Source of the DNA: Candidatus Kerfeldbacteria bacterium
GTDB lineage: Bacteria; Patescibacteriota; Patescibacteriia; SBBC01; CAIJZX01
Assembly (NCBI GenBank): GCA_963731735.1
Contig: CAVSWO010000002.1
Location: 192,875 to 256,874 of the forward strand
Direction: 5' to 3'
DNA length: 64,000 bases
Shown here: piece by piece, positions 1,620 to 47,065 of the stretch
Layout: each line of letters begins with the position of its first letter
Position numbering within the stretch: position 1 is the stretch's first letter
The notes under the pieces: model-generated
The model's input: the letters and a program-made list of their open reading frames with translations, nothing else
What the model was told of the DNA's origin: nothing
Databases searched by the model: none
Program-made: the position numbers and the translations under genes

Positions 1620-4600
1620 TTAATTGGTACACAGTCCTGAAATATTACAGCTCGTTAACCGATAATGATAGAGCTGGTTCGCGTCCAGGTTGGAAATAGT
1701 CACGCTATGATTGGTTGTCAGAGCGTTTGGATCGCTCGGGTTGCCGTAGATTGGTGCGTTCGGATAGCTACAGGCGCCGCTGGGTGGGCAATTGACGGTT
1801 AGGCCGTAGTCAACTTGGGTGGTTGCCGCGTCATCGGTACACCAGGATATGACCGCCTGCCAGCATTGGGTGCCGCCGCAATTGGTAACGCCCGGCATGA
1901 TCGAAGTTTGGACATCCACCGCGCACGTCAGAACCGGATAACTATTATCATTGACCACGTTGACGGTGACTTCAGCCGGCGCGGAAAGGTTCCCGGCCGT
2001 GTCGCGCGCGACGGCTCGAATGACATACGCGCCATTGGTGGCCGAAAGCGTATTCCAGCTGGCTGAAAAGCTGCAGGTCGTGCCGGTACAAGTGGCCGGT
2101 TGATCAAGGGCCACTTGGCTGGGGTCGGCCTGTAAGAAAATCGTGACTTGCACGCTGCTGACCGATTTGTTATCAGTCGCTGAACCGGTGATCGCGACCT
2201 GCCCAATCACGTCTGCGCCGGAACTGGGCGCGGTTAGGCTGACCGTTGGAAGCACGGTGTCCGGTTCATCCAGGGTGGTGAATTGCAGATCAATGCCGCC
2301 GCTGTTGGTTGTGGCCGTGGTGCAATTCGGGGAACTTGCTTGGTCGCAGGAAATCACGCTGAAGAAGTAGGTGGTCAACGGTTGCAGCGGCTGGTAGACC
2401 AGATCATGACAGCCCGAGGTGCAATCGGTCGTATCATTCGATGTTCCCACGATAGCCGTTCGCGTACTATCGGTGAATATAACTATCGCTGAATCGGCCA
2501 ATTCATCCGTCATCCAGGTTATCCGAACGCTATTCCAGTTAGGATCAGCGGTGATGCCTGAAATGACCGGCCCGGTGGAGTCCGGATCAATGTGCAAAGC
2601 CAGGTTGGCGGTTTTGGTCAAGCTGCCCGCGACCCCGGACACCGTAACCGTGTAATCCCCGGCCGGAACGGCGCTGGTCGTTTGGATGTTGAGCGCGAAG
2701 GCGGTTCCGCTGCCGGTCGGGGTGACTTGGTTCGGGCTCAAGACAAGCGTGAGGTTCGGATCGGTCGGATTGCTGGCCACCGTCAGATCAACTTGACCGG
2801 AAAAACCATTCAGAGCTGTTACGGTTCCACCCACGCTTCCCGACTGACCGGCCGTAATGGTTTGGCTGGTTGGATTCAGTACCAAATTGAAGTCCGGCGG
2901 CGCACTAATGTTCAACGTGATTGGAACGGATTTGGTAATTCCATTGCCGACGCCCGTCACGGTCATCAGGTGCGATCCGGCCGGCGCAGTTGCTTGGGTA
3001 CTGATAGTGAGAGTTGAGGATTGGGTGCCGCTGGCGGATAGCGTTAGACTGGTCGGGCTAAATCCGCCGCCAACTCCGTTTGGTTGCCCGGTCAAACTCA
3101 AGGTTACGTCGCCCGCAAACGTCGAATTAGCCGTGGCTTGGATTTGGTAGGAGGTGCCCTGACCGCCGATCACGCTTTGGGCGGACGGAATCGCGTTCAA
3201 GCTGAAGTCAGGCGCCGGTTTGAGCGTTAAGACCACGGTGGCGGTGGCGGTTTTACTATTTCCAACGCCGGTGATGAGCATGGTAAATGTTCCGGTAGTG
3301 GTCGTATTGGTGGTGAGTGTTAGGGTAGAGACGGCTGAACCGTTGGCTGTCAGGTTGACCGGTGTGACACTAAAGTTTGGCACACTCCCGCCAGGATTGC
3401 CGGATAATGATAAATTGACTGATCCCGTGAAACCATTGACTGACGTCGCGGTGACGTCATAGGTAACGGTGTCCCCCGCATTTTTGGTTTGGGGTTGGCT
3501 GGGATTAGCGCTTAAGGTAAAGGTGGGTTCCGTATAAGTGAAGGTGCTTACCGCCGTGCCTTCGTTGCCGGCGCTATCGGTCGCAAATACGGTCACGGTG
3601 TTTGAACCAATCGTTAACGGTCCAAGCGTCCGATCCCAGGTCACGGCCGGAGCGCCAATAACCGGAACGGTCACGTTTTGACGCGGCGCGCCGTTGAGGG
3701 AATATTCAAGTTTTTCTATCCGGTTATCATCGCTGGCTGTTCCCTTGAACGCCGTCGGCGTGGCGTTGACGGTTGATCCATTCGCGGGTGCGGTAATGGT
3801 CACAGTCGGTGCCTGGGTATCGAGGATGATCGAAGTCGAGGCTGAGCTGTCTGATGAATTTTGTGAACCGTCGCTCGCCGTAGCCACAACGGTATTTGCA
3901 CCGGCTACAAGATTAACGGCGGCTGACCAATTCGTGCTCGTAGTACCCGGCACTCCCGGAGCCGTGACTTTCTGGGCGGTGCCGTTCGAAGTTACGCCGA
4001 TAGAATTCAACCGGATATTGTCACTCGCGCTGCCGCTGACTGTCACCGGCGTGGTTTTTGTGTAGAAGGGTGAGGCGGATGGATTGCTGATTGAAATATT
4101 CGGCGCGATGTTGTCGGGGGCGGTAGTTTGGAAGAAGCCAAACGTACCGGCGCTAACGCCTGAGCCCGAGGATTGAACGCTAAAGTGATAGGTTTGTCCG
4201 TAGGTTAGGCTTCCGGCTGGAAGAGCTAATGAATGAGAGTTGGTTAAAGTGGAATCATTCCAACCAGTCGCGCAGGTTCCGGGAGCTGGGTGACAATGGG
4301 AATACATTGCCACTTTTTGATTTGCCGAACCAACGAATATCCTTGATCCGTCAAGTAGAGTCAATGCATTAATTGATGCATTAACAAGATTATATGCTCC
4401 CCGAAAAAGTGTAGTATTTGAACCGTTATAATATCCAACATCCTGATTTGCAATAAACCAGAAAGTGTTCGGTGACAATAGCGAAAGATCTCCAACTGTC
4501 TGGGACGTTGTTGTTGTGATTGGATTAAATATTGTCCCTCCATCAGTTGATTTCAATATTGTTCCATTTGTTCCTGCAACCCAAATTGTTTGACCATCAA

Positions 4601-5687
4601 GAGTTGCAATACTTTCGAATCGCTCGGAAGTATTGTTGTCAACGGTCCAATTTGCGCCTGCATTTGTTGATCGAACGACTGTCCCATTTAGACCAACAGC
4701 CCATATTGATTTATTATCTATTGTCTTAATGTCATACAATGCGTTGCCCCCACTAAACTTCTGCTGCCAGGTTGTCCCATCAAAGAACAGAATCTTTCCA
4801 TCCTCCGTTGCGACCCAAACTGTTTGTTCGTCTGCCGCAGATATTCCAAAAATTCTACTACTATTACCAGTCGGCGCGGGAGAAATCCAATTTGCTCCTC
4901 CATTAACGGTTCGAATGACTTGACCGGAATCACCAGTCGCCCAAACCAGATTGCTATTCACAACATCCACACCGTAGAGCGCTCCTGATAATCCGCTTGT
5001 TTGACTAGACCATGTACCATTGACGTCTCGTTTTAGTATTACACCGGAGTATCCTACTGCCCATACGACTCCATTTTGATCTGAACTCATGCCAAGAAAG
5101 CCAAAGCCGGCTGGTACACTTTCTGTGCTCCAGGTCGGCCCCACAGTATTGTAATAAACTTTCGAATCCCCCGGAAATGTCGTTTGCCAGGAAATAGTCG
5201 CGCTATTGTCAGTAATGTCCGTAACTTGAAGATTCAAATCGGTAGGTGATTGATAACCTGGATAGGTGGTGGCTGTCTTTGAGGTCGTGGCGGTCGAGCC
5301 GTTCATATTTCCATAGACCTGCACTTGATAGGTGCGTCCGGAACGTAAACCGTTCCGTGTGATTGGAGCCGTACCGCTCGCACTTTGGCTGGTCCAAAAT
5401 GATGGTTGCGCGGTTGGATCCTGGCAAGTTATGGCGGTACCTAAACAATTCCACACGGTCCAGGTGTCTGCTCCGTCATTATTGCCGACACCAAAACTCA
5501 TTGAAGAGCTCGAGACCGATGCAGCTGATGTAGTTAGTGAGAGGCCGCCACAAATTCCTCCCGGTTGTGTACAAATTTCTCCCGCTGAACAAGCTGGACT
5601 ACAATTCGCGGCCAGCACCTGCTGTACCGCCACCAGCGTACAGGCGGCGATAACTAGGATAGCGACAAAGTAGGGAAGTTTGGCCAT
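1620..5687 (-). CDS. Giant secreted/cell-surface protein of about 1355 aa. It has a signal peptide (MAKLPYFVAILVIAACTLVAVQQVLAA), an N-terminal Cys-rich segment, a BNR/Ycf48-like beta-propeller region (repeated T/S-x-D/N-G-G-x-x-W motifs), multiple Ig-like/FN3-like domains and a C-terminal PAP-N/FN3-like Cys-rich end.
   Basis: Track ORF 1620..5729. I chose the second Met (MAKL...) as the start because it begins a classical signal peptide and sits 1 nt after the stop (5689-5691) of the upstream giant gene. Ser/Thr/Gly/Asn-rich extracellular composition. Confidence 0.75.
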   Translation of the reverse strand: MAKLPYFVAILVIAACTLVAVQQVLAANCSPACSAGEICTQPGGICGGLSLTTSAASVSSSSMSFGVGNNDGADTWTVWNCLGTAITCQDPTAQPSFWTSQSASGTAPITRNGLRSGRTYQVQVYGNMNGSTATTSKTATTYPGYQSPTDLNLQVTDITDNSATISWQTTFPGDSKVYYNTVGPTWSTESVPAGFGFLGMSSDQNGVVWAVGYSGVILKRDVNGTWSSQTSGLSGALYGVDVVNSNLVWATGDSGQVIRTVNGGANWISPAPTGNSSRIFGISAADEQTVWVATEDGKILFFDGTTWQQKFSGGNALYDIKTIDNKSIWAVGLNGTVVRSTNAGANWTVDNNTSERFESIATLDGQTIWVAGTNGTILKSTDGGTIFNPITTTTSQTVGDLSLLSPNTFWFIANQDVGYYNGSNTTLFRGAYNLVNASINALTLLDGSRIFVGSANQKVAMYSHCHPAPGTCATGWNDSTLTNSHSLALPAGSLTYGQTYHFSVQSSGSGVSAGTFGFFQTTAPDNIAPNISISNPSASPFYTKTTPVTVSGSASDNIRLNSIGVTSNGTAQKVTAPGVPGTTSTNWSAAVNLVAGANTVVATASDGSQNSSDSSASTSIILDTQAPTVTITAPANGSTVNATPTAFKGTASDDNRIEKLEYSLNGAPRQNVTVPVIGAPAVTWDRTLGPLTIGSNTVTVFATDSAGNEGTAVSTFTYTEPTFTLSANPSQPQTKNAGDTVTYDVTATSVNGFTGSVNLSLSGNPGGSVPNFSVTPVNLTANGSAVSTLTLTTNTTTTGTFTMLITGVGNSKTATATVVLTLKPAPDFSLNAIPSAQSVIGGQGTSYQIQATANSTFAGDVTLSLTGQPNGVGGGFSPTSLTLSASGTQSSTLTISTQATAPAGSHLMTVTGVGNGITKSVPITLNISAPPDFNLVLNPTSQTITAGQSGSVGGTVTALNGFSGQVDLTVASNPTDPNLTLVLSPNQVTPTGSGTAFALNIQTTSAVPAGDYTVTVSGVAGSLTKTANLALHIDPDSTGPVISGITADPNWNSVRITWMTDELADSAIVIFTDSTRTAIVGTSNDTTDCTSGCHDLVYQPLQPLTTYFFSVISCDQASSPNCTTATTNSGGIDLQFTTLDEPDTVLPTVSLTAPSSGADVIGQVAITGSATDNKSVSSVQVTIFLQADPSQVALDQPATCTGTTCSFSASWNTLSATNGAYVIRAVARDTAGNLSAPAEVTVNVVNDNSYPVLTCAVDVQTSIMPGVTNCGGTQCWQAVISWCTDDAATTQVDYGLTVNCPPSGACSYPNAPIYGNPSDPNALTTNHSVTISNLDANQLYHYRLTSCNISGLCTN

Positions 5688-8600: not shown

Positions 8601-11199
8601 GGTTTGTCCCGCCGGTTGTCCGAATAAATTTCCGGCAACCTTCACCGGAAGCGTTACAGCTTTCAACGTTCCCGGTAAACCGGACGATATCGTCACCCAC
8701 GGAACCCGGCACATCATCGACCTTGGGTTCGCTGCATTGCCAGGTTTGGGAATCCTGATTGTAGGCCGAGCAGTACCACTGGCATCCGGCCACCTCGGAG
8801 TTGCACTTTCGGAAATCCAAGGTTGAGGCCAGGTAAGAATTCTGTTGGCCGCTGGCGTCGGTGTAAGTGGTGCAGCTGGCATACTGCGCGTCGCAGCGGG
8901 TGCCGTCGAAGCGGAAGGTTTGCCGCTCTTGGACGCAGTAGCCGAAGGCGATACAGGTGCCATCCTCATTTTCGGCGATACAGGATTGTGTATCAGCACA
9001 GGTGTTAGCATTCCGACTGACGACCCAGCGTCCAATGTCAGGGCCAAAGGCACTATTCGTACAATTCGGCACATTGCTGCCCAGGGCGTTTGTATCGCTG
9101 GAACCCAGGACGTTATCTTGGTCGCAGACAAATTCCTTGGTTACAATTTCTTCGCCGGCGCCCTGTCGTCGGCAATAGGTCTGGGGAGCTTTTAAGACCC
9201 AGTTCGGATCCACTAAACCACAGTATGGACTCGGTGTGAGCTTGGCCTGACAACCTTCTCCGTCCGCGATTTGAGCTTGGGTCACTCCGCATTGGCTGTC
9301 GGCTGTGCAGGTTTGCCCGGCATTCGTGCTGCCAGCTGTACAAACTTTATCGTCAGGCGTGGCGGTATGCTGAGAGTCTTGGCCGCAGATATCATATTGC
9401 TTGATCAGATACCCAAGGCTCAAGTCACGCGGGTCAAATTCTTGACTGTAGAGAGCCGCCAACTCCCAACCCACCGGCGTGATGCGATATTTCCGGAGAT
9501 ATTGCAACGACCGGTACGAATAGCCGTTCCGTGGCTGTATTCCATTTTTATCAAAACCAAAAGTCTTGCGTGCGTCGAGCAAGCCTTGCTTGAGTGCTTC
9601 CTGGACCGTTAACTCACTGTCAATCGCGTTTCGAAACTGGGAATCAATTAATCCAGCGCTGGACAATTCGGATGTCACATCAACTTCATTGCGTCCCGGA
9701 TCGCCGGTTCGGATGTCGACTTGGCCGATTTGAGCGAATTGGAGTTGCGCGCCGGCGATACCGGTTGCGCCACCGGAGCCGAAGAGGAGCTGGCCCAGTG
9801 CCGATGTTGGGTTTGTTGGTCCGCTGCAAGCATTTGGATTTAACCCACATCGACTCTTGAAAAAATTCGTCAGGACACGACCGATTGGACTACTAATAAA
9901 GGCTGACAAGCCTTTGATGATATCGGCGCCCGGTTGACCGGTGAAAACCGCGTTGGCGTCCGACCCGCCGGTCAGCGCGCTCAATAAACTTTGTTGCCCC
10001 GCTTCACGCGGAACGAGCACCACGCCGCTGACCTTCGAGGTGCGCGGGAGTATTCCGCTGGACTGCTTGGTCTGTTCCGCTTGCACGGCTGCTTGTTGCT
10101 TTTCTCCGAGGTCCGAATAGGCCACCAATAATTTACCGATATCACTGTTGCCAACCGACAGGGAATTGGCGACCACTACCGAAGCTTCCGGCGCTTGTAA
10201 CTGACCAACCGCCGAAAAGAAGTCCGTGGCCGTCAGCTGGTTGACGGTCTGGTCGGCCAGGGCGGTTATCCCCTTACCACAATCGGTCGCACATTTACCG
10301 GCTTCCGACGCGCCTTTGCTGCGCTCGACGTTTATCGCTTCGTTCATGCGGGATTGGCAAAGGGAGGCCGACATCTTGCAGGTGTCGGCATTGGCCGTAT
10401 TGTCACAGGCGCCGGGTAAAATCCGCCACGGCACATACGAGCTGCCGACCGTTGGATCACCCGGAAATATATCCGAACAGGTAACTTCTTTATCGGGCGT
10501 CGTCCCGGCCACTTCATTAATCCCGGGATTGAGATCAACCCCGGCCAGATGATCGTAGATCAGCTGGACATTGCGCTCATGATCATTCAGCTCATTCGGG
10601 TTCGGCCGGGGTCCGAGGGCGGCATTGCTTTTTGAATCTGGAATCACGTCAATTACTCGATACAAGGTGCTGCAATCTTCCTGGCACTGCTGAACCGGTG
10701 AGCCAATTGCGGTTCGCAAAATACGGGAAATGACAAATCGCTGACGGGCATCACTGGTCGAGGTCCCGACTCCGTTTTCTCCGGTTACGCCTCGAGTGTA
10801 TTCATCAATAAAATCTCCGGCTGCACTGTTCAGCACATTCGGCCAATAATCTTTAAAGTTGGTGATAAACAGCGGCTGCTGCCCGGGACCGGTGGTGGCG
10901 ATGTCGGTTAACACCTCTTGCGCAATCCGAGCGTTATATACCTCGAGCGTGTTCTTGAAAGCGATGGCGGCCGCGCCTTTGGTGGCTTTGTCGATGCGCT
11001 CGGCTGCATTAGTAATAAAATCCGCAATCCGCCGCGGGATGTCGCCGATCGTGGTCGTTACCGAGACGGGGCTCTGCGCCAAGGCCGGTCGGGCATTGAA
11101 ACCGAACCATAGACCTGTTCCGACGACCAAAAACAAGGCCACCAAAACGTGCCGGCGGAGGCGAGATCGTGTTCGGCGTTGATGGGGATTCGGACTCAT
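5689..11199 (-). CDS. Giant (1836 aa) Cys-rich secreted protein. It has an N-terminal signal anchor/peptide (…LVALFLVVGTGLWFGFNARPALAQS), very many paired cysteines and at least two carbohydrate-binding-module-like (CBM4/9/22-like) beta-sandwich segments.
   Basis: Track ORF on the minus strand. Composition and motifs (N-x-x-FE-type CBM segments, hundreds of Cys/Gly/Thr/Asn) read directly from the sequence. Its start overlaps the stop of the upstream TSP3 gene by 4 nt (ATGA). Confidence 0.75.
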   Translation of the reverse strand: MSPNPHQRRTRSRLRRHVLVALFLVVGTGLWFGFNARPALAQSPVSVTTTIGDIPRRIADFITNAAERIDKATKGAAAIAFKNTLEVYNARIAQEVLTDIATTGPGQQPLFITNFKDYWPNVLNSAAGDFIDEYTRGVTGENGVGTSTSDARQRFVISRILRTAIGSPVQQCQEDCSTLYRVIDVIPDSKSNAALGPRPNPNELNDHERNVQLIYDHLAGVDLNPGINEVAGTTPDKEVTCSDIFPGDPTVGSSYVPWRILPGACDNTANADTCKMSASLCQSRMNEAINVERSKGASEAGKCATDCGKGITALADQTVNQLTATDFFSAVGQLQAPEASVVVANSLSVGNSDIGKLLVAYSDLGEKQQAAVQAEQTKQSSGILPRTSKVSGVVLVPREAGQQSLLSALTGGSDANAVFTGQPGADIIKGLSAFISSPIGRVLTNFFKSRCGLNPNACSGPTNPTSALGQLLFGSGGATGIAGAQLQFAQIGQVDIRTGDPGRNEVDVTSELSSAGLIDSQFRNAIDSELTVQEALKQGLLDARKTFGFDKNGIQPRNGYSYRSLQYLRKYRITPVGWELAALYSQEFDPRDLSLGYLIKQYDICGQDSQHTATPDDKVCTAGSTNAGQTCTADSQCGVTQAQIADGEGCQAKLTPSPYCGLVDPNWVLKAPQTYCRRQGAGEEIVTKEFVCDQDNVLGSSDTNALGSNVPNCTNSAFGPDIGRWVVSRNANTCADTQSCIAENEDGTCIAFGYCVQERQTFRFDGTRCDAQYASCTTYTDASGQQNSYLASTLDFRKCNSEVAGCQWYCSAYNQDSQTWQCSEPKVDDVPGSVGDDIVRFTGNVESCNASGEGCRKFIRTTGGTNLIPNSGFETFTGQADDGSDDDFAGWNQNGAQAVAASDQAINGSNLTAVALTGSISSTIDTGYHLYERNFVGSVRAKASAECQAKVTLTTDVDSTTQDVTVGTDWGSASALLVIGREDQQTSSSNALTFTIEPGNCAGLVIDSAQVEEGGQSQYKDYGLVNTLALNKKRVACSSDDVGCEAYTPLAGGPVVNGQVRNSNRCSADDVGCATYYLEPYTTGPISRAGGYTNIVAPKGQQCNASQVGCEEYTNLDEVARGGEGKEYFQSVKQCVKPDPTATNQVTYYSWVGNAQKGFVLQAHELLQSNLNNGPCTNVTPGNSAGGTPTCNDTSTTIASCSAADLATNPDCGEFYDSALQVYYRLRSKTVTVTAACTPYRNTTDQNDNDPNNNDNVYFLSANENVSCSAAAAGCRAYTGNSGRTARAILNDTFESGTTNNWVGGVNVTESTTLGGHSMYIPVGAAGKAAAYTQASVLDTQLTDGKSYVVSFYAAAANQASDGATINAGFGGEVERTLRMADGGFDLTQPLTTNPGTLRWNENITPAGPQWQQYTYGPVALNGRDFRLGISVSGGEAFVDNVVLTEINDSLYLVQPTVPICQASEIGCAAYRDRAGQSQYLKSFNRICSEQVVGCEAMIDTQNSSSPFAQTVKNEFTPADQVVTVVNNKAAYCASSQLGCQAYGLPVYSTDHTLTGFQTVYLKNNPDRYSTDICLQNELSCKAYTDSNGTAAFFKDPSSQTCEFRADDSDVGGTWYITGTNSRCPITTPPLQGQPIGASCSPVCQDGQRVGKACVSDGDCPGSTCVGDASLIGKIVDGKGKTVYGQCSINSTSGKSNCAGSNTCVYLAGTCPNAQNGCNEYRDPSDPPGCRSECPLIQQGGSPVYVDGSCQPTVCDGSSPANVQGQNCQNSSQCGGGRCVDSNGTEANGFPGCRSYDYLRQTVEDNSQDCNGQVNTEVGCRPFNDISNPTLNFRGN

Positions 11200-12894: not shown

Positions 12895-14055
12895 TTAGAA
12901 CAGCAAGTAGAAGAAAGAAACCAGGCCGGCCAATACGAATCCGGTGGTGAACGGAGAAAAAGTTTGAGCCGCAATCACAACCACTACCGCGATCAAAATT
13001 TTACCGATCGCGAAGCCTTGTTCTAAAAAGACCGCGCGCTCAATCACATTTTTTTCGGCCAATGCGCGTTCATACGAAATATCTGAAATGGTCACGAAGG
13101 TCGCGTTTTTTGCCACCATCCCGACGGTCGCGCTGGTAAATACCATCCCGACCGTTTTGAGCAGCGGACGGGTAAGCCAAACCAGCACCGTAATCACCGC
13201 TCCCCAGTTGAGCGTTCGTTTCCAATGCCCTTTGTCGATCGATTGACCGAACTTGAGCGTCACGATGGCCGTCAACAACGTCGCTAAGGCGATGGCGCTT
13301 CCGAGCGAGAGATAGTCTTTAAACGTCAAAGCGATAAATATCGGCCAAATAGTCATCAAAATCAGCTCCTCGCCGAAGGCCAGGTAGGCCAGGGTGGTTC
13401 GAATATGTAAGCGTCGGAACGGCATCATCAGGCTGTCCCGGTATGAAAAGCCTTGGGGAATATAGGGGATTTTCTCCATAAACAATGGCACGTTCGACAG
13501 CACAATCAGTCCGATCACCATCCCGAAAAGAATCGGGAACCCGAAAAATTTAATGATAGTTCCGCCCAGCAGCGGTCCCAGGATGTACATAACGGTCGAA
13601 ACGGACCACAGGCCCGAATACTGTTTTCCGCGTTCGCCTTGATCGGAACTTTGGATAAAATCGGTATGGTAGGCTGGCCAGTAGAACATTTTCTGGAGTG
13701 CAAAAAATATTGGAGCCACCCAAAACAAGAACGCCGCGTCCGGCAGAAAGAGTAAACTCCCATAGTAGCCGACCAACATAAAAGTGCTGATTGCAATACT
13801 GCGTTCCGGACCGCGCCGAGCCACAAATAATCCGCCTAGCGGAACCAGAAAGTAGTACACCCCGTATACCAAGACGTAGTACATCATAATGTGCTGAATG
13901 CTGTACCCAAGTTGATACAGATAGACCGGTTCGAACAGAATAACCGCCGCTAGCGCGAAATCCAGGATCGCCACCGAATAATACAATTCCTGCAGCTGAT
14001 GGCTGAAGTGCTTGCGGAAGTAGAAGGGGAAACTATGAACGAAGGGGATTCGCAT
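12895..14055 (-). CDS. Polytopic membrane transporter (MFS-like, 10-12 predicted TM segments)
   Basis: Highly hydrophobic 386-aa ORF with repeated TM helices. Its stop abuts the rsmA start. Confidence 0.6.
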   Translation of the reverse strand: MRIPFVHSFPFYFRKHFSHQLQELYYSVAILDFALAAVILFEPVYLYQLGYSIQHIMMYYVLVYGVYYFLVPLGGLFVARRGPERSIAISTFMLVGYYGSLLFLPDAAFLFWVAPIFFALQKMFYWPAYHTDFIQSSDQGERGKQYSGLWSVSTVMYILGPLLGGTIIKFFGFPILFGMVIGLIVLSNVPLFMEKIPYIPQGFSYRDSLMMPFRRLHIRTTLAYLAFGEELILMTIWPIFIALTFKDYLSLGSAIALATLLTAIVTLKFGQSIDKGHWKRTLNWGAVITVLVWLTRPLLKTVGMVFTSATVGMVAKNATFVTISDISYERALAEKNVIERAVFLEQGFAIGKILIAVVVVIAAQTFSPFTTGFVLAGLVSFFYLLF

Positions 14056-15521: not shown

Positions 15522-17965
15522 ACCACAAAGTTTATCAACTTGTCTTTCACGAAAATGACCTTTTTTGGTTCGCTGGTCAGGAATTTCGCCACATTCGGTT
15601 CAGCCTTGGCTGCTTTTTCAACATGTTTTTGTTCACTCCCAATTGGTAACCATAATGTACCACGCAGTTTTCCATTAACCTGAACTGCCAAAGTGACGGT
15701 ATCTATATCAGAGATTAATTTATTATCATATGTAGGCCAGCCAGAAAGATTACTTCGTTGATGTTTTTCCAATATTTCACTTACTATATGAGGCGCAAAG
15801 GGCTTGAGAAGTAACAAAAAGTATTCAAATTCTTCTCGCGGTCGATCTGTAAGTTTATCAAAAGCATTAGCAAGTATCATTAACGAAGAAACTGCGGTGT
15901 TAAACTTGAATTCCTCAATGTCTCTAGTTACTTTTTTTATTGTTTTATGTGTCAATAGGACAACATCTGATGGACAATTTTTTGCTTGTTTTTTATTCCC
16001 TATTCGCCACACTTTCTCCAAAAATCTCCGGACGCCAACAATGCCATTCGTGTCCCACGGCTTAGCATCTTCAAACGGTCCCATGAACATCTCGTACATG
16101 CGAAGCGTATCGGCGCCAAACTTTTCAACAATCTCATCGGGATTGATGACATTCCCCCGCGACTTGGACATCTTTTCGCCGTCGGGTCCAAGAATCAGTC
16201 CTTGATTTTTTAACTTCTGGAACGGCTCATCGCCGACTTCCTTCGGAATGTGCTGCATGTCATACAACACTTTGTGCCAGAACCGCGCGTAGAGGAGATG
16301 CAAGACCGCGTGTTCCGCTCCGCCGACGTACAGATCAACCGGCAGCCAAGACTTCATCGCCTTCGCACTGGCGAATGCTTTCTCATTCTGCGGATCGGTA
16401 AACCGTAAATAGTACCAACAGCTTCCGGCCCACTGGGGCATCGTGTTCGTTTCGCGCTTGGCCGGACCGCCGCAGTTCGGGCAAGTCGTGTTAACCCAAT
16501 CATCTATGTCAGCCAACGGCGATTCGCCGGTACCGGTTGGTTCGTATTTTTCGACATCGGGCAGCAGCACCGGTAAATCCTTTTCATCAACGGGCACCAC
16601 ACCGTCTTTCGGACAATGGACCAACGGAATCGGTTCACCCCAGTAGCGCTGGCGCGAGAAGACCCAGTCGCGGAGTTTGTAGTTTACTTTGGGTTGGGCC
16701 TTGCCTTCTTTTTGTAACCATGCGACGATTTTCTTTCGAGCATCATGACTTGAAAGCCCATTAAATTTGCCTGAATTTATTAATACACCTTCACCTGACC
16801 AGACTCGCATGGGTGATTCTTTCCCTGCAGCCACATCATAAAAACCGCCGACCTCGGGCGATACAATTACTTCAATAAAACTTAAATCATGGTTCTTTGC
16901 AAAAGCAAAATCCCGCTCGTCATGCGCCGGGACGGCCATAATCGCGCCGGTGCCGTAACTCATTAATACGTAGTCAGCGATCCAGACCGGGATTTTTTCG
17001 TGATTGACTGGGTTAATCGCGTAGGCGCCAGTAAAGACACCAGTTTTTTCTTTTTCCAGCGCGGTCCGTTCGAGGTCCGACTTGGCTGCCACATCTTTCA
17101 CATATTGTTCAACTGCCTTTTTCTGGTCAGCGGTAGTAATGTCGTTCACCAACGGATGTTCTGGTGATAACACCATGTACGTCGCGCCGAATAAGGTATC
17201 GGGCCGGGTGGTAAAAACCGTGACGTTGTGGTTTTTGTCATTCCGGACTTGATCCGAAATCTCAAAAACCACTTCGGCGCCCTCAGATTTCCCAATCCAG
17301 TTGCGTTGCAGGGCCTTAATCCCCTCCGGCCAGTCAAGTTTTTCCAATCCATCGAGCAAACGATCAGCATAGTCGGTGATTTTGAGCATCCACTGCTTCA
17401 GCATTTTCTTTTCAACCGTCGTGCCGCAGCGATCACACTTGCCGTTGACGACCTCTTCATTCGCTAAGCCAGTTTTATCCTTCGGGCACCACCAAATCGG
17501 CGCTTCTTTTTCATAGGCTAACCCTTTTTTAAAAAGCTGGAGGAAAATCCACTGTGTCCACTTGTAGTATTTCGGATCCGTCGTGTTAACTTCCCTGTCC
17601 CAGTCGTAGGAAAATCCGAGCGACTGAATCTGGCGCTTGAAGTTGGCAATGTTTTGTTCGGTCACCGTTCGCGGATGAATTTTTTTCTTGATGGCCGCGT
17701 TTTCCGCCGGCAGGCCAAACGCGTCCCAGCCCATCGGGTGGAGTACTTGTATGCCTTGCATCCGGAGATAGCGAGAAAAAATATCGGTGGCGGTGTAGCC
17801 TTCGGGATGGCCGACATGGAGACCGTCTCCCGACGGATAGGGAAACATGTCCAAAACATACTGCGCGCCCGCCTTGGGTTTTTCCGGGGCGCGAAAAACA
17901 CCGGCTTCTTGCCAGCGCTGTTGCCACCGTTTTTCTATTTCTCGATGATCAAATTTATCGGACAT
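15518..17965 (-). CDS. leuS: Leucyl-tRNA synthetase (815 aa after start correction)
   Basis: HIGH-class signature (PYPSGDGLHVGHPEGYTATD), KMSKSRGN motif and LeuS editing/anticodon-binding domains. The track ORF (969 aa) begins 154 codons upstream of the conserved N-terminus MSDKFDHREIEKRWQQRWQEAGVF. The ATG at 17963-17965 is the likely start. Confidence 0.9.
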   Translation of the reverse strand: MSDKFDHREIEKRWQQRWQEAGVFRAPEKPKAGAQYVLDMFPYPSGDGLHVGHPEGYTATDIFSRYLRMQGIQVLHPMGWDAFGLPAENAAIKKKIHPRTVTEQNIANFKRQIQSLGFSYDWDREVNTTDPKYYKWTQWIFLQLFKKGLAYEKEAPIWWCPKDKTGLANEEVVNGKCDRCGTTVEKKMLKQWMLKITDYADRLLDGLEKLDWPEGIKALQRNWIGKSEGAEVVFEISDQVRNDKNHNVTVFTTRPDTLFGATYMVLSPEHPLVNDITTADQKKAVEQYVKDVAAKSDLERTALEKEKTGVFTGAYAINPVNHEKIPVWIADYVLMSYGTGAIMAVPAHDERDFAFAKNHDLSFIEVIVSPEVGGFYDVAAGKESPMRVWSGEGVLINSGKFNGLSSHDARKKIVAWLQKEGKAQPKVNYKLRDWVFSRQRYWGEPIPLVHCPKDGVVPVDEKDLPVLLPDVEKYEPTGTGESPLADIDDWVNTTCPNCGGPAKRETNTMPQWAGSCWYYLRFTDPQNEKAFASAKAMKSWLPVDLYVGGAEHAVLHLLYARFWHKVLYDMQHIPKEVGDEPFQKLKNQGLILGPDGEKMSKSRGNVINPDEIVEKFGADTLRMYEMFMGPFEDAKPWDTNGIVGVRRFLEKVWRIGNKKQAKNCPSDVVLLTHKTIKKVTRDIEEFKFNTAVSSLMILANAFDKLTDRPREEFEYFLLLLKPFAPHIVSEILEKHQRSNLSGWPTYDNKLISDIDTVTLAVQVNGKLRGTLWLPIGSEQKHVEKAAKAEPNVAKFLTSEPKKVIFVKDKLINFVV

Positions 17966-19495: not shown

Positions 19496-20998
19496 TTAAT
19501 GGAGTTGGCCGGGTGGCCGATATTGCAAAGCTTCGGCAAGGTGGGCCGTTTTGATGACGGCTGAAGTTTCTAAATCGGCAATTGTCCGGGCCACCCGAAT
19601 CACCCGATGATAAGCTCGCAGCGATAAGTGTAGGCGTTCCATTGCCTGGCGCATCAGATCCTGTTCGGAGGTTCCTAACCCGTCAATTAACTGTTGTGAA
19701 CGCCCGCGCTGATGTCCGTTGGTCATCCAATCCGACTGATAGCGCTGGTGCTGCCGGTGTCGAGCCGAGGCTATTATCGGACGCGGATCATCCGCCTGGT
19801 TATTCGCGTCAATGTCTTTCAACGGTACCCGCGGGACATGGACGAATAAATCAAATCGATCAAGGACTGGGCCGGATATTTTTCGTTGGTAGCGCTGTAT
19901 GACGGACGGTGAACAGCCGCAAGTTTTTTCCGTATCGCCAAAGTATCCGCAGGGGCACGGATTCATCGCCGCGACTAACATGCCGCCAGCCGGAAACCGG
20001 ACTGATCCGGCTACCCGATTAACGGTTACCACGCCTTCTTCCAGCGGTTGTCGGAGCGCCTCAATGTGGTCTCGTGAAAATTCCGGAAATTCGTCGAGGA
20101 ATAACACGCCGTGGTGAGCTAACGATAGTTCGCCCGGTTTGGGGATCCGCCCGCCACCAACCAGTGACGCGACCGAGGCGGTGTGATGCGGTTGGCGAAA
20201 AGGTCGATGTTGAATCAGTCCGTGAGCCGGCAACGGCTGCCCGGCCACACTGTAGATAGTCGTGACTTCTAGCGCTTCGCTCTCGGTCATGGGTGGAATC
20301 AGTTCGGCGACGGCTTTGGCAAGGAGTGTTTTGCCGGAACCAGGTGGACCAATTAGCAGCGCATTATGGTGACCGGCCGCGGCGATCTGCATCGCCCGCT
20401 TGGCCTGGACTTGGCCGATGATAGTCGGCCAAAGATTCCAGCTTGATGGGGTTGAGCGATCAAGTGGTGTCGGCGGCTGATAGGATGGCTGGCGCTGACC
20501 CATAACCAATTCGGCCACCTCGCGCAAAGTGGCAACTGGCAAAACCCGTAAGCCATGGATGAGTCCAGCTTCGGCCGCGTTATCTTTTGGAACCACCAGT
20601 ATTTTTTTCCGATCGCGAGCCAGACGCGCCATCGCAAGGACGCCATGCGTTGGACGTACTTGACCGGACAGCCGCAACTCGCCCATCACCATCCACTCGA
20701 CCGGCTGTTCCGGTACCTGTCCGGAAGCAACCAGAATCGCTAACGCGGCCGGTAAATCAAAACCGCTACCCTCTTTGCGCCAATCAGCCGGCGATAAATT
20801 CAGGCTGACATGGTGATACGGAAAATGAAAATCTGAATTTTTTATGGCCGACCGCACCCGCTCACGCGCCTCCTGGACCGCCGCGTCTGGTAAGCCCACG
20901 ATCGTGACTTTTGGTAGACCGTGATGAATATCGGCTTCGACGGTGACGGGACGGGCCTCCAGACCGTCAACTGATGCGCTCGTTACCGTGGCTGACAT
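19496..20998 (-). CDS. YifB/ComM family Mg-chelatase-like AAA+ ATPase
   Basis: N-terminal Lon-like domain, Walker A GPPGSGKT, Walker B VLFLDEFPEF, C-terminal ChlI/Mg-chelatase domain. Confidence 0.9.
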   Translation of the reverse strand: MSATVTSASVDGLEARPVTVEADIHHGLPKVTIVGLPDAAVQEARERVRSAIKNSDFHFPYHHVSLNLSPADWRKEGSGFDLPAALAILVASGQVPEQPVEWMVMGELRLSGQVRPTHGVLAMARLARDRKKILVVPKDNAAEAGLIHGLRVLPVATLREVAELVMGQRQPSYQPPTPLDRSTPSSWNLWPTIIGQVQAKRAMQIAAAGHHNALLIGPPGSGKTLLAKAVAELIPPMTESEALEVTTIYSVAGQPLPAHGLIQHRPFRQPHHTASVASLVGGGRIPKPGELSLAHHGVLFLDEFPEFSRDHIEALRQPLEEGVVTVNRVAGSVRFPAGGMLVAAMNPCPCGYFGDTEKTCGCSPSVIQRYQRKISGPVLDRFDLFVHVPRVPLKDIDANNQADDPRPIIASARHRQHQRYQSDWMTNGHQRGRSQQLIDGLGTSEQDLMRQAMERLHLSLRAYHRVIRVARTIADLETSAVIKTAHLAEALQYRPPGQLH

Positions 20999-28468: not shown

Positions 28469-29413
28469 ATGCCGGAAACCAAAACCAATGAACTGACCCG
28501 CTGGAAGAATCGTTTTTTAAGTTACATTGAGGTTGAGCGCAACAAAAGCCTGTTAACCCGACGGAATTACGATCACTACCTGACCACCTTTATCACGGTT
28601 ACGCGCCTGACCCGCCCCGAACAAATTTCCCTGGATGACATCCGGGATTTCCGCCTTTGGCTCAATCGCCAAATTAGCGCCCGCGGTAACAGCCTGAAAA
28701 AATCTACCCAGAACTACTATTTGATCGCCTTGCGATCGTTCTTAAAGTATTTGGCCAAGCAGGATGTCAAAGCTATGGCCGCCGAGAAGATCGAACTCGC
28801 GAAAACCAGCGACCGGCAAGTCAGTTTTTTAGAGGGGGATGATCTCGAGCGATTTTTGAACGCCCCAATGCAGCCGCACGCGCAAAGCTTAGTGGCCATC
28901 CGCGATAAAGCGATTCTGGAGTTACTGTTCTCTTCCGGCCTTCGAGTTTCCGAATTAGCGAATCTCAAACAGGACAACCTTAATTTAAAAAAAGACGAAT
29001 TCACCATCCGCGGCAAAGGCGATAAACTCCGGGTGGTGTTCTTATCGTCAGCAGCCAAAAAATGGATCGCCCTATATCTGCAAAAACGGCATGATGGATC
29101 CCCGTATCTATTCGTCCGTCATGATCGGGCCGGTAAACGCACCAGCGAATCAAAGCCGCTCACGCCACGTTCAATCCAACGTCTGGTTGATCACTACACC
29201 AAAGCGGCTGGAATTACAAAAAAGGTTACTCCCCATACGTTGCGACACTCCTTCGCAACTGATCTCCTGATGAACGGAGCTGACATTCGAAGCGTTCAGG
29301 CCATGCTCGGGCACGCCTCGATCCAAACCACCCAGATCTACACCCACGTAACCAATCCACAACTCCGTGAGATTTACAAAAAGCATCACGGTAAGGGTCG
29401 GGCAGAAAACTAA
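28469..29413 (+). CDS. XerC/XerD-family tyrosine site-specific recombinase
   Basis: N-terminal SAM-like domain and C-terminal catalytic domain with R...HxxR...Y (HTLRHSFATDLLMNGADIRSVQAMLGHASIQTTQIYTHV). Confidence 0.85.
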   Translation: MPETKTNELTRWKNRFLSYIEVERNKSLLTRRNYDHYLTTFITVTRLTRPEQISLDDIRDFRLWLNRQISARGNSLKKSTQNYYLIALRSFLKYLAKQDVKAMAAEKIELAKTSDRQVSFLEGDDLERFLNAPMQPHAQSLVAIRDKAILELLFSSGLRVSELANLKQDNLNLKKDEFTIRGKGDKLRVVFLSSAAKKWIALYLQKRHDGSPYLFVRHDRAGKRTSESKPLTPRSIQRLVDHYTKAAGITKKVTPHTLRHSFATDLLMNGADIRSVQAMLGHASIQTTQIYTHVTNPQLREIYKKHHGKGRAEN

Positions 29414-29516: not shown

Positions 29517-30266
29517 GTGAGGCAGGTGAAACGCGGATCTGGCTGGGCGGATTGGGAAACTTTTTTCCAAGCCTTTGCCCCCGTGATTGAACAATTTCTG
29601 CTTGCCCATCATCGGCTCCCCAAGCGATCGGAAATGGCTGGGACACACCAGTATTTATTGAGTGCGGCCGACCGTCATCACGGAAGTTACACGGCTTGCC
29701 TGTGCCGGGCCGGATTTACCCCTGAGCCGTATCCCCGTCCGAAATCACCCCAGGAAAACTGGCGCGATCGAGCCGTCCAGTTGGCGTGTCTCCGACATGA
29801 TTTCCGGACTTGGACCGCCTGGGGCATCATGCCATCGCCAAACACGGTTCGGTCCATTCGCCCCGGCCTGGCAAACTTCTGGTTGAAACCACCGAGCACC
29901 TGGCAAGCGGTTGCCCGAACCTTCAACTTGGACTTGGCTTCCGTTGGTGAGACCCGGCGACGGACGGCGATGGCCATCGCGGAAACGTTGGATTTCTACG
30001 AACGCCACGGGCGTTATCCGCTGATCAGCGAGTGCCGACCGATTTTGCGGCAACGCCGGTTTCGTCGGAAAACCAGCTGGCCAACGTTTCTGACCCAAGT
30101 TGATTTTCACCCGCGAACTATTGAACATTTGCTGGCCCGCTGGAAGGCGCACTACCTGTGGTGCCACCTCCATGACGGTATTCGGATTCCCGAAATTCAG
30201 CGCACCATCAACGCGCTGCACATCAAAAAAAGTCTGCTTGAACCCTTTGGCCGCTCGTCGCCCTGA
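29517..30266 (+). CDS. Trp/Arg-rich basic hypothetical protein, no recognisable domain
   Basis: 249-aa track ORF between the recombinase and tRNA-Arg. It is followed by a textbook terminator. The start may be the internal Met (MAGTHQY). Confidence 0.45.
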   Translation: MRQVKRGSGWADWETFFQAFAPVIEQFLLAHHRLPKRSEMAGTHQYLLSAADRHHGSYTACLCRAGFTPEPYPRPKSPQENWRDRAVQLACLRHDFRTWTAWGIMPSPNTVRSIRPGLANFWLKPPSTWQAVARTFNLDLASVGETRRRTAMAIAETLDFYERHGRYPLISECRPILRQRRFRRKTSWPTFLTQVDFHPRTIEHLLARWKAHYLWCHLHDGIRIPEIQRTINALHIKKSLLEPFGRSSP

Positions 30267-40028: not shown

Positions 40029-40105
40029 GCGCCCGTAGCTCAGTGGATTAGAGCATTTGGCTTCGGACCAAAGGGTCGGGGGTTCGAGTCCCTCCGGGCG
40101 CACCA
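40029..40105 (+). tRNA. tRNA-Arg (anticodon TCG), CCA encoded
   Basis: Hand-folded: acceptor GCGCCCG/CGGGCGC, D stem GCTC/GAGC, anticodon stem TTTGG/CCAAA with loop CTTCGGA, T arm GGGGG-TTCGAGT-CCCTC. Confidence 0.8.
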
Positions 40106-40236
40106 AATAGGTCGCGAAGCGAATCATAAACATTACCCGAAGAGGGACGAGAAGGGTTGCAGCGCACGAGTCGAGCCGTGCTCGACGAAGCTCGCGATCG
40201 ACGAGTTGCCAGCGGCAAGTCGTCGCAACCCAGGAC

Positions 40237-40258
40237 TCGAGTCCCTCCGGGCGCACCA
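40237..40258 (+). repeat. Exact 22-nt direct repeat (tcgagtccctccgggcgcacca) of the tRNA-Arg(TCG) 3' end (40084-40105), 131 bp downstream
   Basis: Both copies read directly. The intervening 131 bp is GC-rich with nested hairpins (GGGTTGC...GCAACCC, TCGAGC-cgt-GCTCGA). Confidence 0.85.
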
Positions 40259-40890: not shown

Positions 40891-40906
40891 AATACGTTTA
40901 TAACGC

Positions 40907-40932
40907 GCCACGCCTGCTCTGCAGCAGGCGTG
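40907..40932 (-). terminator. Perfect 11-bp hairpin (CCACGCCTGCT-ctgc-AGCAGGCGTGG) downstream of the minus-strand DUF378 gene. Weak U-tract.
   Basis: Inverted repeat read directly. Confidence 0.35.
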
Positions 40933-40959
40933 GATGTCATTCGAAAAAACTGATCGCGA

Positions 40960-45948: not shown

Positions 45949-46409
45949 AAAAAATAGAAATTCGGATTTCCGGTCAGACCGGATTCGGAAGTATACTCGG
46001 TCGCATTGCCTTTGGCAAGGGCTCGGATACTCCGGTCCACAACCTAAAGAAAAAAGCGCACAAATATTCATGTGCGCTTCGGACGGAGTGAGCTGCGGCC
46101 CAAAATTGACGGGCGGCAGTGACAATGGGGATTGGTGCAGACTTCAGCGTGCTTGAGATGGCTGCCGGTTTCACCGGTTCGCGCTTCGCGATCGATATCG
46201 CTGCGCAATTCGGCTTCGGTCGGACAATCCGGTCCAAGTCCCGGGCACTTCCCTGCTTCGGCCATGGGTCCCTCCAACGGGAAAAATGAGCAGCTGGCGC
46301 AAAAGGTAACGGCAACTTTAGCGCGATGGCGTGAATTTGTCAATCCTTCAGGCGCGACCGGTAGCCAGACCGTGATATACTGTTGGACAGAACACGTTTA
46401 TTTGCCTCT

Positions 46410-46763
46410 ATGCCCCGCGGACAGAATCTCTACTTTCGCATCTACGGTGCGGTGCGCCGTATCCCGAAAGGCAAGGTTGCAACCTATGGACAAATTGCTG
46501 CTATGATTCAAGCTCCCCGCTCAGCTAGAATTGTCGGCTGGGCTTTACGCGCGCTCAAACCCGAGAGCCGCATACCATGGCATCGCGTCCTCAATAAGGA
46601 CGGGATGATCTCGATTGAAAATATGCGCACACCGAAGTCTCTCCAGGCAGAACTCTTGAAGCAGGAAGGTGTAACTGTCGACTTTCGAGATGGGAATTTT
46701 TGGGTGGACTTGAAAAAGTTTGGCTTGGGCGGTAGAGTAGAGCCGCCTGCGGGTATCGTATAA
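46410..46763 (+). CDS. Alkyltransferase-like protein (MGMT DNA-binding domain with Trp replacing the active-site Cys: PWHRV; YbaZ/Atl-like)
   Basis: YGQIA...PRSARIVGWAL...IPWHRVLN. The 3' end of the ORF runs about 15 nt into the tRNA-Gly(TCC) gene. Confidence 0.6.
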   Translation: MPRGQNLYFRIYGAVRRIPKGKVATYGQIAAMIQAPRSARIVGWALRALKPESRIPWHRVLNKDGMISIENMRTPKSLQAELLKQEGVTVDFRDGNFWVDLKKFGLGGRVEPPAGIV

Positions 46764-46822
46764 TGGTAATACCTCAGCTTTCCAAGCTGATGCCGGGGGT
46801 TCGATTCCCCCTACCCGCTCCA
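46749..46822 (+). tRNA. tRNA-Gly (anticodon TCC), CCA encoded
   Basis: Hand-folded; near-identical architecture to E. coli glyT (GCGGGTATCGTATAATGG...CCTCAGCTTTCCAAGCTGA...). Anticodon loop TTTCCAA. Confidence 0.8.
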
Positions 46823-46958
46823 AATAGCTTTATAAGTCTTCCAAGCAAGGAAGACAACATTGTCATTGACGTCGAGGAATCGAACGGGCCGAGGACGGCT
46901 GCCGGCGGCAGGCGACCACCGGCCCAGGCCCGAACCGCCGTGGAGTAACGGTGAGCGG

Positions 46959-46980
46959 TCGATTCCCCCTACCCGCTCCA
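46959..46980 (+). repeat. Exact 22-nt direct repeat (tcgattccccctacccgctcca) of the tRNA-Gly(TCC) 3' end (46801-46822), 136 bp downstream
   Basis: Both copies read directly. The intervening sequence is GC-rich with palindromic segments (ctgccggcggcag). Confidence 0.85.
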
Positions 46981-47065
46981 ACCCAAGGTATGCCGGTGTA
47001 GCTGGCTGGTTTTTCGATACCGGAAGCGTTATACTTCTGGTATCATCAAGTAACAGTGCGGCCCC

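Follow-up and report, generated by a model that had tools for sequence, protein, structure and literature searches.

Duplicated 3′ ends of tRNA genes are the textbook mark of integrated islands, which normally span kilobases and bring an integrase with them. Such a duplication is found behind the tRNA-Gly(TCC) gene in a stretch of 64,000 nt (the window) of contig CAVSWO010000002.1 from a Candidatus Kerfeldbacteria bacterium (assembly GCA_963731735.1, positions 192,875 to 256,874 of the forward strand). Here it bounds only about 135 bp, which hold a covarying three-helix hairpin around an inverted copy of the target T-loop. This raises the question of which process leaves the mark of an island around so short a piece of DNA. 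Hairpin insertions of this type are a previously undescribed family that recurs at tRNA genes of the ultra-small bacteria of this group, the Patescibacteria. The explanation we favour, to which we give about even credence, is that they are miniature, non-autonomous products of site-specific integration at the T-loop, comparable to the attachment site of an incoming element (attP) without its cargo.

The duplicated block TCGATTCCCCCTACCCGCTCCA runs from T55 of the T-loop to the CCA of tRNA-Gly(TCC) (Table 1). It occurs exactly twice in the window, even if up to three mismatches are allowed, with a chance expectation of 0 (100 shuffles). Since the next base is an A in both copies, the identity really extends over 23 nt. 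The spacer of 136 nt has a GC content of 30–50% over its first 60 nt and of 63–85% over the remainder (60% overall), and its fold scores z = −2.2 against shuffled sequence. Both the exact 22-nt duplication with its 136-nt spacer and the GC-rich, palindromic character of this spacer, which an earlier note had described from the letters of this DNA, were borne out, with exact matches at both positions and two hairpins (P2 and P3) in the spacer. The Logan assembly L001, which is independent, has the identical structure, and this speaks against an artefact of assembly.

The earlier note had also pointed to a second structure of this kind, and this twin at tRNA-Arg(TCG) is real. Its 22-nt block TCGAGTCCCTCCGGGCGCACCA encloses a spacer of 131 nt (fold against shuffled sequence, z = −4.2). 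Both repeats run from T55 to the CCA, and both spacers are AT-rich over their first 40–50 nt and GC-rich after that. They are not alignable with each other (score 63.5, shuffles 59.7 ± 7.3), so that the two loci share an architecture, not a sequence. No flanking fragments were found at the remaining six tRNAs of the window, which leaves two of eight tRNAs with the structure. Both spacers indeed start with AATAG, as the note had said, but this is no signature of the element. As tRNA-Pro is followed by AATAC and tRNA-Arg(TCT) by AATTG, AATAG is a common start of trailers in this genome, and it was ruled out as an element end.

The key feature, which had been missed in the earlier note, is an inverted T-loop. 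Each of the two spacers holds an inverted copy of the T-loop of its own tRNA, 83–95 nt before copy 2 of the repeat. In the Gly spacer this copy, GGAATCGAAC, is the reverse complement of GTTCGATTCC and pairs as the 5′ strand of a helix P1 with the first 8 nt of copy 2, whereas the last 14 nt of copy 2, consisting of the acceptor 3′ strand and the CCA, stay unpaired. P1 encloses the GC-rich hairpins P2 and P3. At the Arg locus the inverted copy pairs with copy 2 around a branched hairpin in the same manner. The inverted copy tracks the local tRNA, as it reads GGAATCGAA at Gly, GGACTCGAACC at Leu, GACTCGAA at the tRNA of the related locus L149 and GAGGGAC at Arg.

Related loci were gathered by scanning metagenomes with a conserved stretch of tRNA-Gly (53 loci), and further contigs were added via ATL homologues. 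The 306 tRNAs of all gathered loci were surveyed for exact copies of at least 12 nt of their 3′ end within 450 nt downstream, and 11 of them showed such a duplication. An inverted copy of the own T-arm of 10–13 nt, located 79–118 nt upstream of copy 2, accompanies five of these 11 duplications, with an estimated chance rate of about 0.002 per case; the inverted copy at the Arg locus of the window is 7 nt long.

The same architecture with different spacer sequences was found in other Patescibacteria at tRNA-Gly, tRNA-Leu and another tRNA. The Gly element of the window is closely related to that of L174 and more distantly to that of L162. Compared by eye, its hairpin module is about 85% identical to that of L174 over the first 60 nt. 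The core of P2, GAGGACGRCTGCC-N5-CAGKCGACC, is common to the window Gly element, that of L174 and the one behind the other tRNA in L149, and the left junction CCCAGGAC/TCGA is identical in the Arg element of the window and the tRNA-Gly element of L136. BLAST of both spacers with their flanks against all gathered loci matched only the window itself and L001. A contig scan based on DipZ gave relatives of at most 44% identity among the matches listed, and the DipZ neighbourhoods in closer relatives showed no synteny.

RNAalifold recovered P1 to P3 from the window Gly element, L174 and L162, and both partners are changed in 5 of the 29 pairs. When a covariance model was made of these three, it detected the elements in L149, L129 and L136 as well. 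In the alignment of six elements, 93% of the cells are paired and 14 of 29 pairs show double changes. None of 500 shuffles reached this value, and slid controls paired to at most 47%.

The recurrence of the module bears on one possible explanation, a local duplication or replication error. A tandem duplication, a template switch or a gutted second tRNA-Gly gene would account for the repeat without any mobile DNA. Template switching at palindromes such as the T-arm can yield inverted repeats, which counts for this explanation, and the junction GGTGAGCGG before copy 2 resembles a leader of the related locus L112 (GGTGA) joined to the first four bases of its tRNA. However, the hairpin module is dissimilar to the rest of the tRNA, and the same module stands behind different tRNAs in different organisms. 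A tandem duplication would furthermore repeat the spacer after copy 2, where it is absent, and a simple duplication of this kind was rejected on that ground. We consider local duplication very improbable and the least likely of the explanations.

The presence of the element varies among close relatives, a variation that came to light when these were compared. In L110 and L111, with ATL proteins of 80% and 75% identity to the one in the window, tRNA-Gly has no duplicate, whereas the element is present in L174 (79%) and L162 (57%). L111 is syntenic with the window over T2SSE, the Arg/Pro tRNAs, the order ATL, tRNA-Gly and reductase, the Cys-Gly-Leu tRNAs and the response regulator and kinase. 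The flank GCGCGTCATCGCGC... directly follows tRNA-Gly in L111 but copy 2 in L162, and L162 has about 156 extra nt relative to L111. Empty and filled orthologous sites of this kind mark the structure as an insertion, and judging from these comparisons the tRNA-Gly structure arose by insertion and is patchy among close relatives.

If the duplications are taken together, 3′ ends are repeated 88–264 nt apart in about 9 of 129 non-redundant tRNAs of the clade. No copy of 15 nt of a 3′ end was found beyond 450 nt, with at least 2 kb of downstream sequence for 77 tRNAs and at least 5 kb for 38 of them. The earlier note had left a choice between recurrent integration and excision at tRNA genes and a class of tiny elements which target them. 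The tiny elements fit better, because homologous hairpin modules are found at different tRNAs in different organisms and because all duplications fall between 88 and 264 nt and none reaches the kilobase scale, whereas excision is without evidence. In L148 and L149, tandem units stand behind one tRNA, as repeated integration would give. In L148 (13520–13900), two tandem units follow tRNA-Leu(GAG), each with a bidirectional terminator and then TGGTGAAGGCAAGGAAGGACTCGAACC, whose minus strand resembles a tRNA 3′ end finishing in ACCA.

Table 1. Features of the two insertion loci and of related loci (positions refer to the window unless a related locus is named).
Feature	Locus	Position	Strand	Remark
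tRNA-Arg(TCG)	window	40029-40105	+	
22-nt block of tRNA-Arg(TCG), copy 1	window	40084-40105	+	
Arg inverted T-arm copy	window	40142-40151	+	GAGGGAC-GAG, pairs with CTC-GA-GTCCCTC of copy 2
Arg GC-rich branched hairpin domain	window	40154-40231	+	GGGTTGC...GCAACCC, then AGGAC
22-nt block of tRNA-Arg(TCG), copy 2	window	40237-40258	+	
Sigma-70-like promoter candidate	window	46710-46738	+	TTGAAA-17-TAGAGT; lies in the last part of the ATL-like ORF, before tRNA-Gly
tRNA-Gly(TCC), intact	window	46749-46822	+	CCA encoded; ARAGORN; Rfam tRNA, 66 bits
22-nt block of tRNA-Gly, copy 1	window	46801-46822	+	T55 of T-loop to CCA, within the functional tRNA
Gly linker	window	46823-46875	+	AT-rich; small hairpin GTCTTCC-AAGCAA-GGAAGAC at 46836-46855
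Gly inverted T-loop copy	window	46876-46885	+	5′ strand of P1
Gly hairpin P2	window	46886-46925	+	GGGCC-GAGGACG-GCTGCC-GGC-GGCAG-GCGACC-..GGCCC
Gly hairpin P3	window	46927-46958	+	variable; ends GAGCGG at the copy 2 junction
22-nt block of tRNA-Gly, copy 2	window	46959-46980	+	
Terminator-like hairpin and T-run	window	46992-47017	+	directly after Gly copy 2
tRNA-Gly element	L136/L149			spacer 141 nt
tRNA-Gly element	L129			spacer 163 nt
tRNA-Gly element	L162			spacer 135 nt
tRNA-Gly element	L174			
tRNA-Leu(GAG) element	L148			spacer 168 nt
Element behind another tRNA	L149	end of locus		
CCA asymmetry	L129	9930-10185		
CCA asymmetry	L136	2646-2830		
CCA asymmetry	L111	4380-4644	-	
Nested array	L116	~17540-17700	-	
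Nested arrays	L112	10330-11100, 19650-20339	-	
Nested array	L136	3480-3700		
Nested array	L144	~13100-13650		
Hairpin insertions in tRNA fragments	L112	~10540-10575, ~300-330, ~19990-20025	-	
ORFs beside the attP-like region	L181	3889-4440, 4437-5201	-	

The narrow size class also bears on the possibility that the structures are decayed attachment (att) scars. According to this explanation, a prophage or island of kilobase scale with its own tyrosine integrase once sat at the T-loop, and its interior was deleted while attL and attR were kept. The anatomy of the repeat is that of an integrase att site. Displaced fragments in relatives (Arg and Pro in L112) carry compensatory differences in the T-stem and acceptor; they thus derive from other functional alleles, as would be expected if an incoming attP replaces the 3′ end. 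A phage contig (L181, see below) has a similar attP layout, and the strongly reduced genomes of Patescibacteria count in the same direction. Nevertheless, intermediates are missing, as neither an integrase pseudogene nor a duplication over more than 450 nt was seen among the 77 tRNAs with at least 2 kb downstream, and independent loci converge on 130–170 nt. In addition, copy 2 is exact and the fold is kept by compensatory changes, whereas neutral scars should decay and differ widely in size. Decayed scars are therefore regarded as unlikely.

The conserved fold itself suits another explanation, namely a functional structured RNA that is co-transcribed with the tRNA (a 3′ external spacer RNA), with the duplication as a feature of its design. 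Such a three-helix RNA with a single-stranded NCCA tail would be freed by tRNA 3′ processing and might serve as a decoy or have a part in tRNA metabolism. In the window as well as in L129 and L162, the element separates the tRNA from a terminator-like site; in the two latter loci this is a hairpin that likewise follows copy 2. A promoter-like site is located upstream of the tRNA in the window. The candidate promoter in the window was called from its match to the consensus, for which 7 sites were found in the region against 5.6 expected; the hairpin behind copy 2 is probably the original terminator of tRNA-Gly. The fold is moreover conserved with covariation, the plus strand is the more stable one in 6 of the 7 folded elements, and it does contain a few G-U pairs. 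Several points speak against such an RNA. Rfam, whose families include tRNA-like and Y-RNA-like RNAs, ribozymes and the T-box, matched nothing but the tRNAs themselves (window, E ≤ 1; four related loci, E ≤ 5), and G-U pairs are rare, with 0–3 among 29–41 pairs in 6 of the 7 elements (5 of 29 in the seventh, L133). Terminators stand between the tRNA and the hairpin module in L148 (strong) and L174 (a weak, terminator-like hairpin). Only two of the eight tRNAs of the window have the element, and its patchy distribution and tandem copies suit selfish insertion better than a housekeeping RNA. The helices, which are nearly all Watson-Crick, and the similar stability of both strands fit palindromes acting at the DNA level, though an RNA is still compatible with them. 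We regard the structured RNA as distinctly unlikely.

For the favoured reading, integration at the T-loop, the following course of events can be proposed. A piece of about 158 bp would have been inserted into the segment of the tRNA-Gly(TCC) gene that encodes the T-loop and, in a separate event, into that of tRNA-Arg(TCG). It would consist of a replacement tRNA 3′ end (T55 to CCA), a trailer or linker and a hairpin module of 85–105 nt which starts with the inverted T-loop copy. Integration would leave the tRNA intact and shift the original 3′ end further downstream, where it still adjoins the terminator that belongs to the gene; by sequence, the original and the replacement are indistinguishable between two identical 22-mers. 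The inverted T-loop would then pair with the displaced T-loop in P1 and close the three-helix fold, and in a free circular or single-stranded form of the element this fold would recreate the duplex of the target site. Movement would be mediated in trans by a site-specific recombinase encoded elsewhere. The expected products of excision are an empty junction ...GCTCCA/ACCCAAGG and a circle junction ...GGTGAGCGG/TCGATTCCCCCTACCCGCTCCA/AATAGC....

This anatomy closely resembles T-loop att sites of tyrosine integrases, such as those of P4-like and of many prophage and island integrases. A block of identity from the T-loop to the 3′ end is reportedly the classical tyrosine-integrase sublocation in tRNA genes, which counts for the favoured reading. 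In both cases the direct repeat spans the tRNA from the T-loop to its 3′ end, an intact tRNA is located at one junction and a displaced 3′ fragment at the other, and relatives have empty sites. The elements described here differ by the mere 131–136 bp between the repeats, which hold neither integrase nor cargo, and by the inverted core copy 80–120 nt away that closes a conserved three-helix fold. A second parallel is found in integrative mobile elements exploiting Xer (IMEX) of the CTX-phi type, which integrate a folded single-stranded attP via the host XerCD. These also have two inverted target-like sites about 90 nt apart and a hairpin which mimics the chromosomal target, and by analogy a Xer-type recombinase of the host could serve here, as one is encoded in the window. 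Unlike in IMEX, the target is a tRNA T-loop and no dif-like site, and the body comprises about 50 nt instead of a phage genome.

The attC sites of integrons are imperfect palindromes of 57–141 nt, which are recognised as a folded strand and are similar to the palindrome described here. By inspection, their boxes RYYYAAC and GTTRRRY agree with ATCGAAC and GTTCGAT at 6 of 7 positions each, and the crossover likewise falls at the start of the right-hand box. In contrast to integrons, attI and a cassette array are absent, as is an integron integrase (TIGR02249 gives 128 bits, its cutoff being 265), and the junction position varies by 1–2 nt. Miniature inverted-repeat transposable elements (MITEs) and the cis-mobilizable elements (CIMEs) related to streptococcal integrative and conjugative elements (ICEs) are similar in being short and geneless, in presumably being moved in trans, and in having a conserved internal module at many sites. 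However, the elements described here lack the terminal inverted repeats of MITEs (their ends are AATAGC... and ...GAGCGG) and duplicate 22 nt instead of 2–10 bp of target, and in their inverted repeat an internal site has the flanking tRNA block as its partner. They are also far smaller than the CIMEs described.

Several observations weigh against integration at the T-loop. Neither an integrase nor a transposase, phage, plasmid or recombinase gene was found in or next to the Gly or Arg element. The sole tyrosine recombinase of the window is a Xer-type gene (28469–29413), 11–17 kb away. In IMG/VR, every match of the Gly 22-mer lies within a tRNA called by ARAGORN, with no free copy, and the P2 core is absent. 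A gapped scan of viral sequences for an inverted T-loop, a gap and a T-loop gave 9 hits, roughly the estimated chance expectation. Two of them, in the contigs L181 and L184, were informative; the match in the phage contig L181 may be due to chance and is thus suggestive. In addition, the linker of the window Gly element is unrelated to that of its closest homologue L174 and is not conserved there; together with the similar hairpin modules, this is unexpected if the whole 158 bp moves as a unit. If double-stranded, a circle of about 158 bp would also be awkward mechanically. Finally, the covariation fits a functional RNA equally well, with the element placed between tRNA and terminator, and the covariation alignment of six sequences had been fitted to the covariance model.

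In L181 (3640–3890), an unrelated phage, an inverted T-loop GGGGAATCGA is followed by a hairpin and the 3′ part of a tRNA-Gly, GGGTTCGATTCCCATCACCCGCTCCA. The region lies between endolysin and holin genes on one side and HNH and tyrosine-integrase genes on the other, and thus its layout matches the position and form expected of an attP. Another IMG/VR contig, L184, contains 2.9 tandem copies of a 145-nt unit with 96% identity (4691–5112). Each unit consists of a terminator, an inverted T-loop, a hairpin and a direct T-loop, and the array abuts the 3′ end of a large serine recombinase ORF (3132–4751; Resolvase, Recombinase and Zn_ribbon_recom). The Arg 22-mer matched whole tRNAs in IMG/VR except in L097, L100 and L107, which were not called by ARAGORN but have tRNA-like upstream sequence; the match in L100 sits at the start of its locus.

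At the tRNA loci of the clade, pieces of other functional alleles lie densely packed, with breaks in the D-, anticodon- and T-loops. Some of them form nested arrays, in which a complete tRNA with complementary leader and trailer (10–19 nt) is framed by the 5′ and 3′ pieces of an older gene for the same tRNA; up to two or three such layers occur. The intact tRNA-Cys of L116, for example, has a perfectly complementary leader and trailer of 14 nt and sits inside an older tRNA-Cys, whose 5′ part (1–37) and 3′ part (56–76) still match each other. Around the tRNA-Gly of L112 there are two such layers, and their flanks are homologous (TCCCGC... and ...GCGGGAC); L136 and L144 have the same nesting at tRNA-Pro. 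Outer and inner alleles show compensatory differences for Cys in L116 and are identical for Pro in L136. Furthermore, a hairpin of about 31–33 nt, TCCGGCGGRGCCGGATCWGGCTYCGCC.TGAC, centred on GGATC, was identified in displaced tRNA fragments of L112. It separates T55 from C56 in fragments of tRNA-Gly and tRNA-Pro, and in a tRNA-Gly(GCC) fragment it sits in the D-loop. Palindromes of the GCGGGATCCCGC type also border nested units in this locus.

These arrays allow a wider view, according to which the clade hosts dedicated parasites of tRNA genes, hairpin elements as well as whole-tRNA cassettes, and the tRNA genes are continually replaced in a selfish manner instead of being passively inherited. 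The first kind would be a hairpin element of about 150 nt, with the inverted T-loop as built-in guide or mimic of the target, and would invade as folded single-stranded DNA via a host Xer-type or another recombinase. The second kind would be a complete tRNA cassette with inverted leader and trailer flanks, which inserts into the loops of the resident tRNA and leaves behind nested arrays of a tRNA within a tRNA. This wider view is considered rather doubtful. In the tRNA-dependent lysogeny of mycobacteriophages (PMC10865867), an element likewise interferes with a host tRNA gene and supplies a replacement, which is relevant to the nested arrays; there a whole phage carries the tRNA, whereas the units described here comprise 150–300 bp.

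Further rearrangements were observed at tRNA loci. At three loci (L129, L136 and L111) the displaced downstream fragment has a CCA and the intact gene in front of it has none encoded; the reverse was never seen. A mirror image was found in unrelated Patescibacteria, with a 5′ fragment of a tRNA repeated upstream. In L011 (2770–3020, minus strand), 18 nt of a tRNA-Lys up to the D-loop are repeated 176 nt upstream and followed by a perfect 24-nt palindrome, and in L024 (16836–17060, minus strand) about 40 nt of a tRNA-Thr up to the anticodon loop are repeated 145 nt upstream. Small GIY-YIG nuclease ORFs (83–90 amino acids) lie near rearranged tRNA clusters in L112 (6801–7052) and L114 (13261–13533); the copy in L114 is located beside tRNA-Leu and was not called at the corresponding place of L112. 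In L174 (536–760), tRNA-Gly, linker, hairpin element and copy 2 are inverted as a block relative to ATL. Copy 2 abuts the 3′ end of ATL there (TTTGGTTGG/AGCGGG), and a similar short motif (CCAACCCAAGG) follows copy 2 in the window (46749–46990 compared).

Judged by its DipZ and ATL homologues, the window belongs to Patescibacteria; its contig is 822,872 bp long. The genes around the Gly and Arg loci are housekeeping genes (T2SSE, PNPOx, VKOR, DipZ, thioredoxin, a CitMHS transporter, a CBS protein, ATL, SDR and a FAD/NAD reductase). Downstream follow genes for a NUDIX protein, a response regulator, a histidine kinase, UDG and others. The Xer-type recombinase reaches the cutoff of NF040815 (XerA/integron-integrase-like) and stays below those for XerC, XerD and integron integrase. 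The ORF behind it (29517–30266), about 100 nt from tRNA-Arg(TCT), has a weak match to an HNH-associated repeat.

The open reading frame (ORF) upstream of tRNA-Gly (46383–46763), which is ATL-like (PF01035, the DNA-binding domain of MGMT), overlaps the tRNA by 15 nt, which confirms an overlap of about this length proposed earlier. About 83% of the ORF is covered by homologues, and the C-terminal stretch including the overlap is without a counterpart. A comparison by eye with relatives (...AAATTTGGTTGGGACGATACACTCTAG) shows an apparent insertion of 1 nt (TTTGGCTTGGG), a shifted frame and a longer C-terminus; the source annotation has a version of 117 amino acids. The Gly linker resembles the trailer of tRNA-Pro of the same genome (AATAnnTTTATAA ... 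TGTCATT). The trailer (40891–40950) reads AATACGTTTATAA, a hairpin and TGTCATT, and the linker (46823–46870) reads AATAGCTTTATAA, a hairpin and TGTCATT. The tRNA-Pro has no duplicated 3′ end despite this resemblance.

Other candidates were rejected. The defining motifs of an antisense tRNA, a tmRNA, a Y-RNA-like RNA and a hammerhead or other ribozyme are wanting, and the same is true of a retron and of IS200/IS605 or IS110 guide RNAs, for which neither defining motifs nor an adjacent reverse transcriptase, transposase or recombinase gene was found. A primer-binding site was also considered, as the minus strand is complementary to a tRNA 3′ end, but this holds for any such repeat, and there is no reverse transcriptase context. 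The searchable literature yielded no description of the hairpin insertions or the nested tRNA arrays. What comes closest is work on group I introns, which occupy position 35/36 in tRNAs of Patescibacteria (10.1101/2025.07.03.662931), and on the tRNA-dependent lysogeny mentioned above. Here, tRNA-Gly is contiguous and intact and has no match to RF00028, so that it is not a case of such an intron.

The same hairpin design is thus found again at several tRNAs and across several lineages of bacteria with reduced genomes. Finders which detect islands by tRNA genes will call false islands at such loci, and the arrays of fragments may confuse tRNA annotation and assembly. Should the hairpin insertions prove to be mobile, they would stand at about the lower end of the size range of known site-specific integrative elements and offer a rare example of an element that itself encodes a mimic of its target; they would also help to explain the heavy rearrangement of tRNA loci in the relatives sampled.

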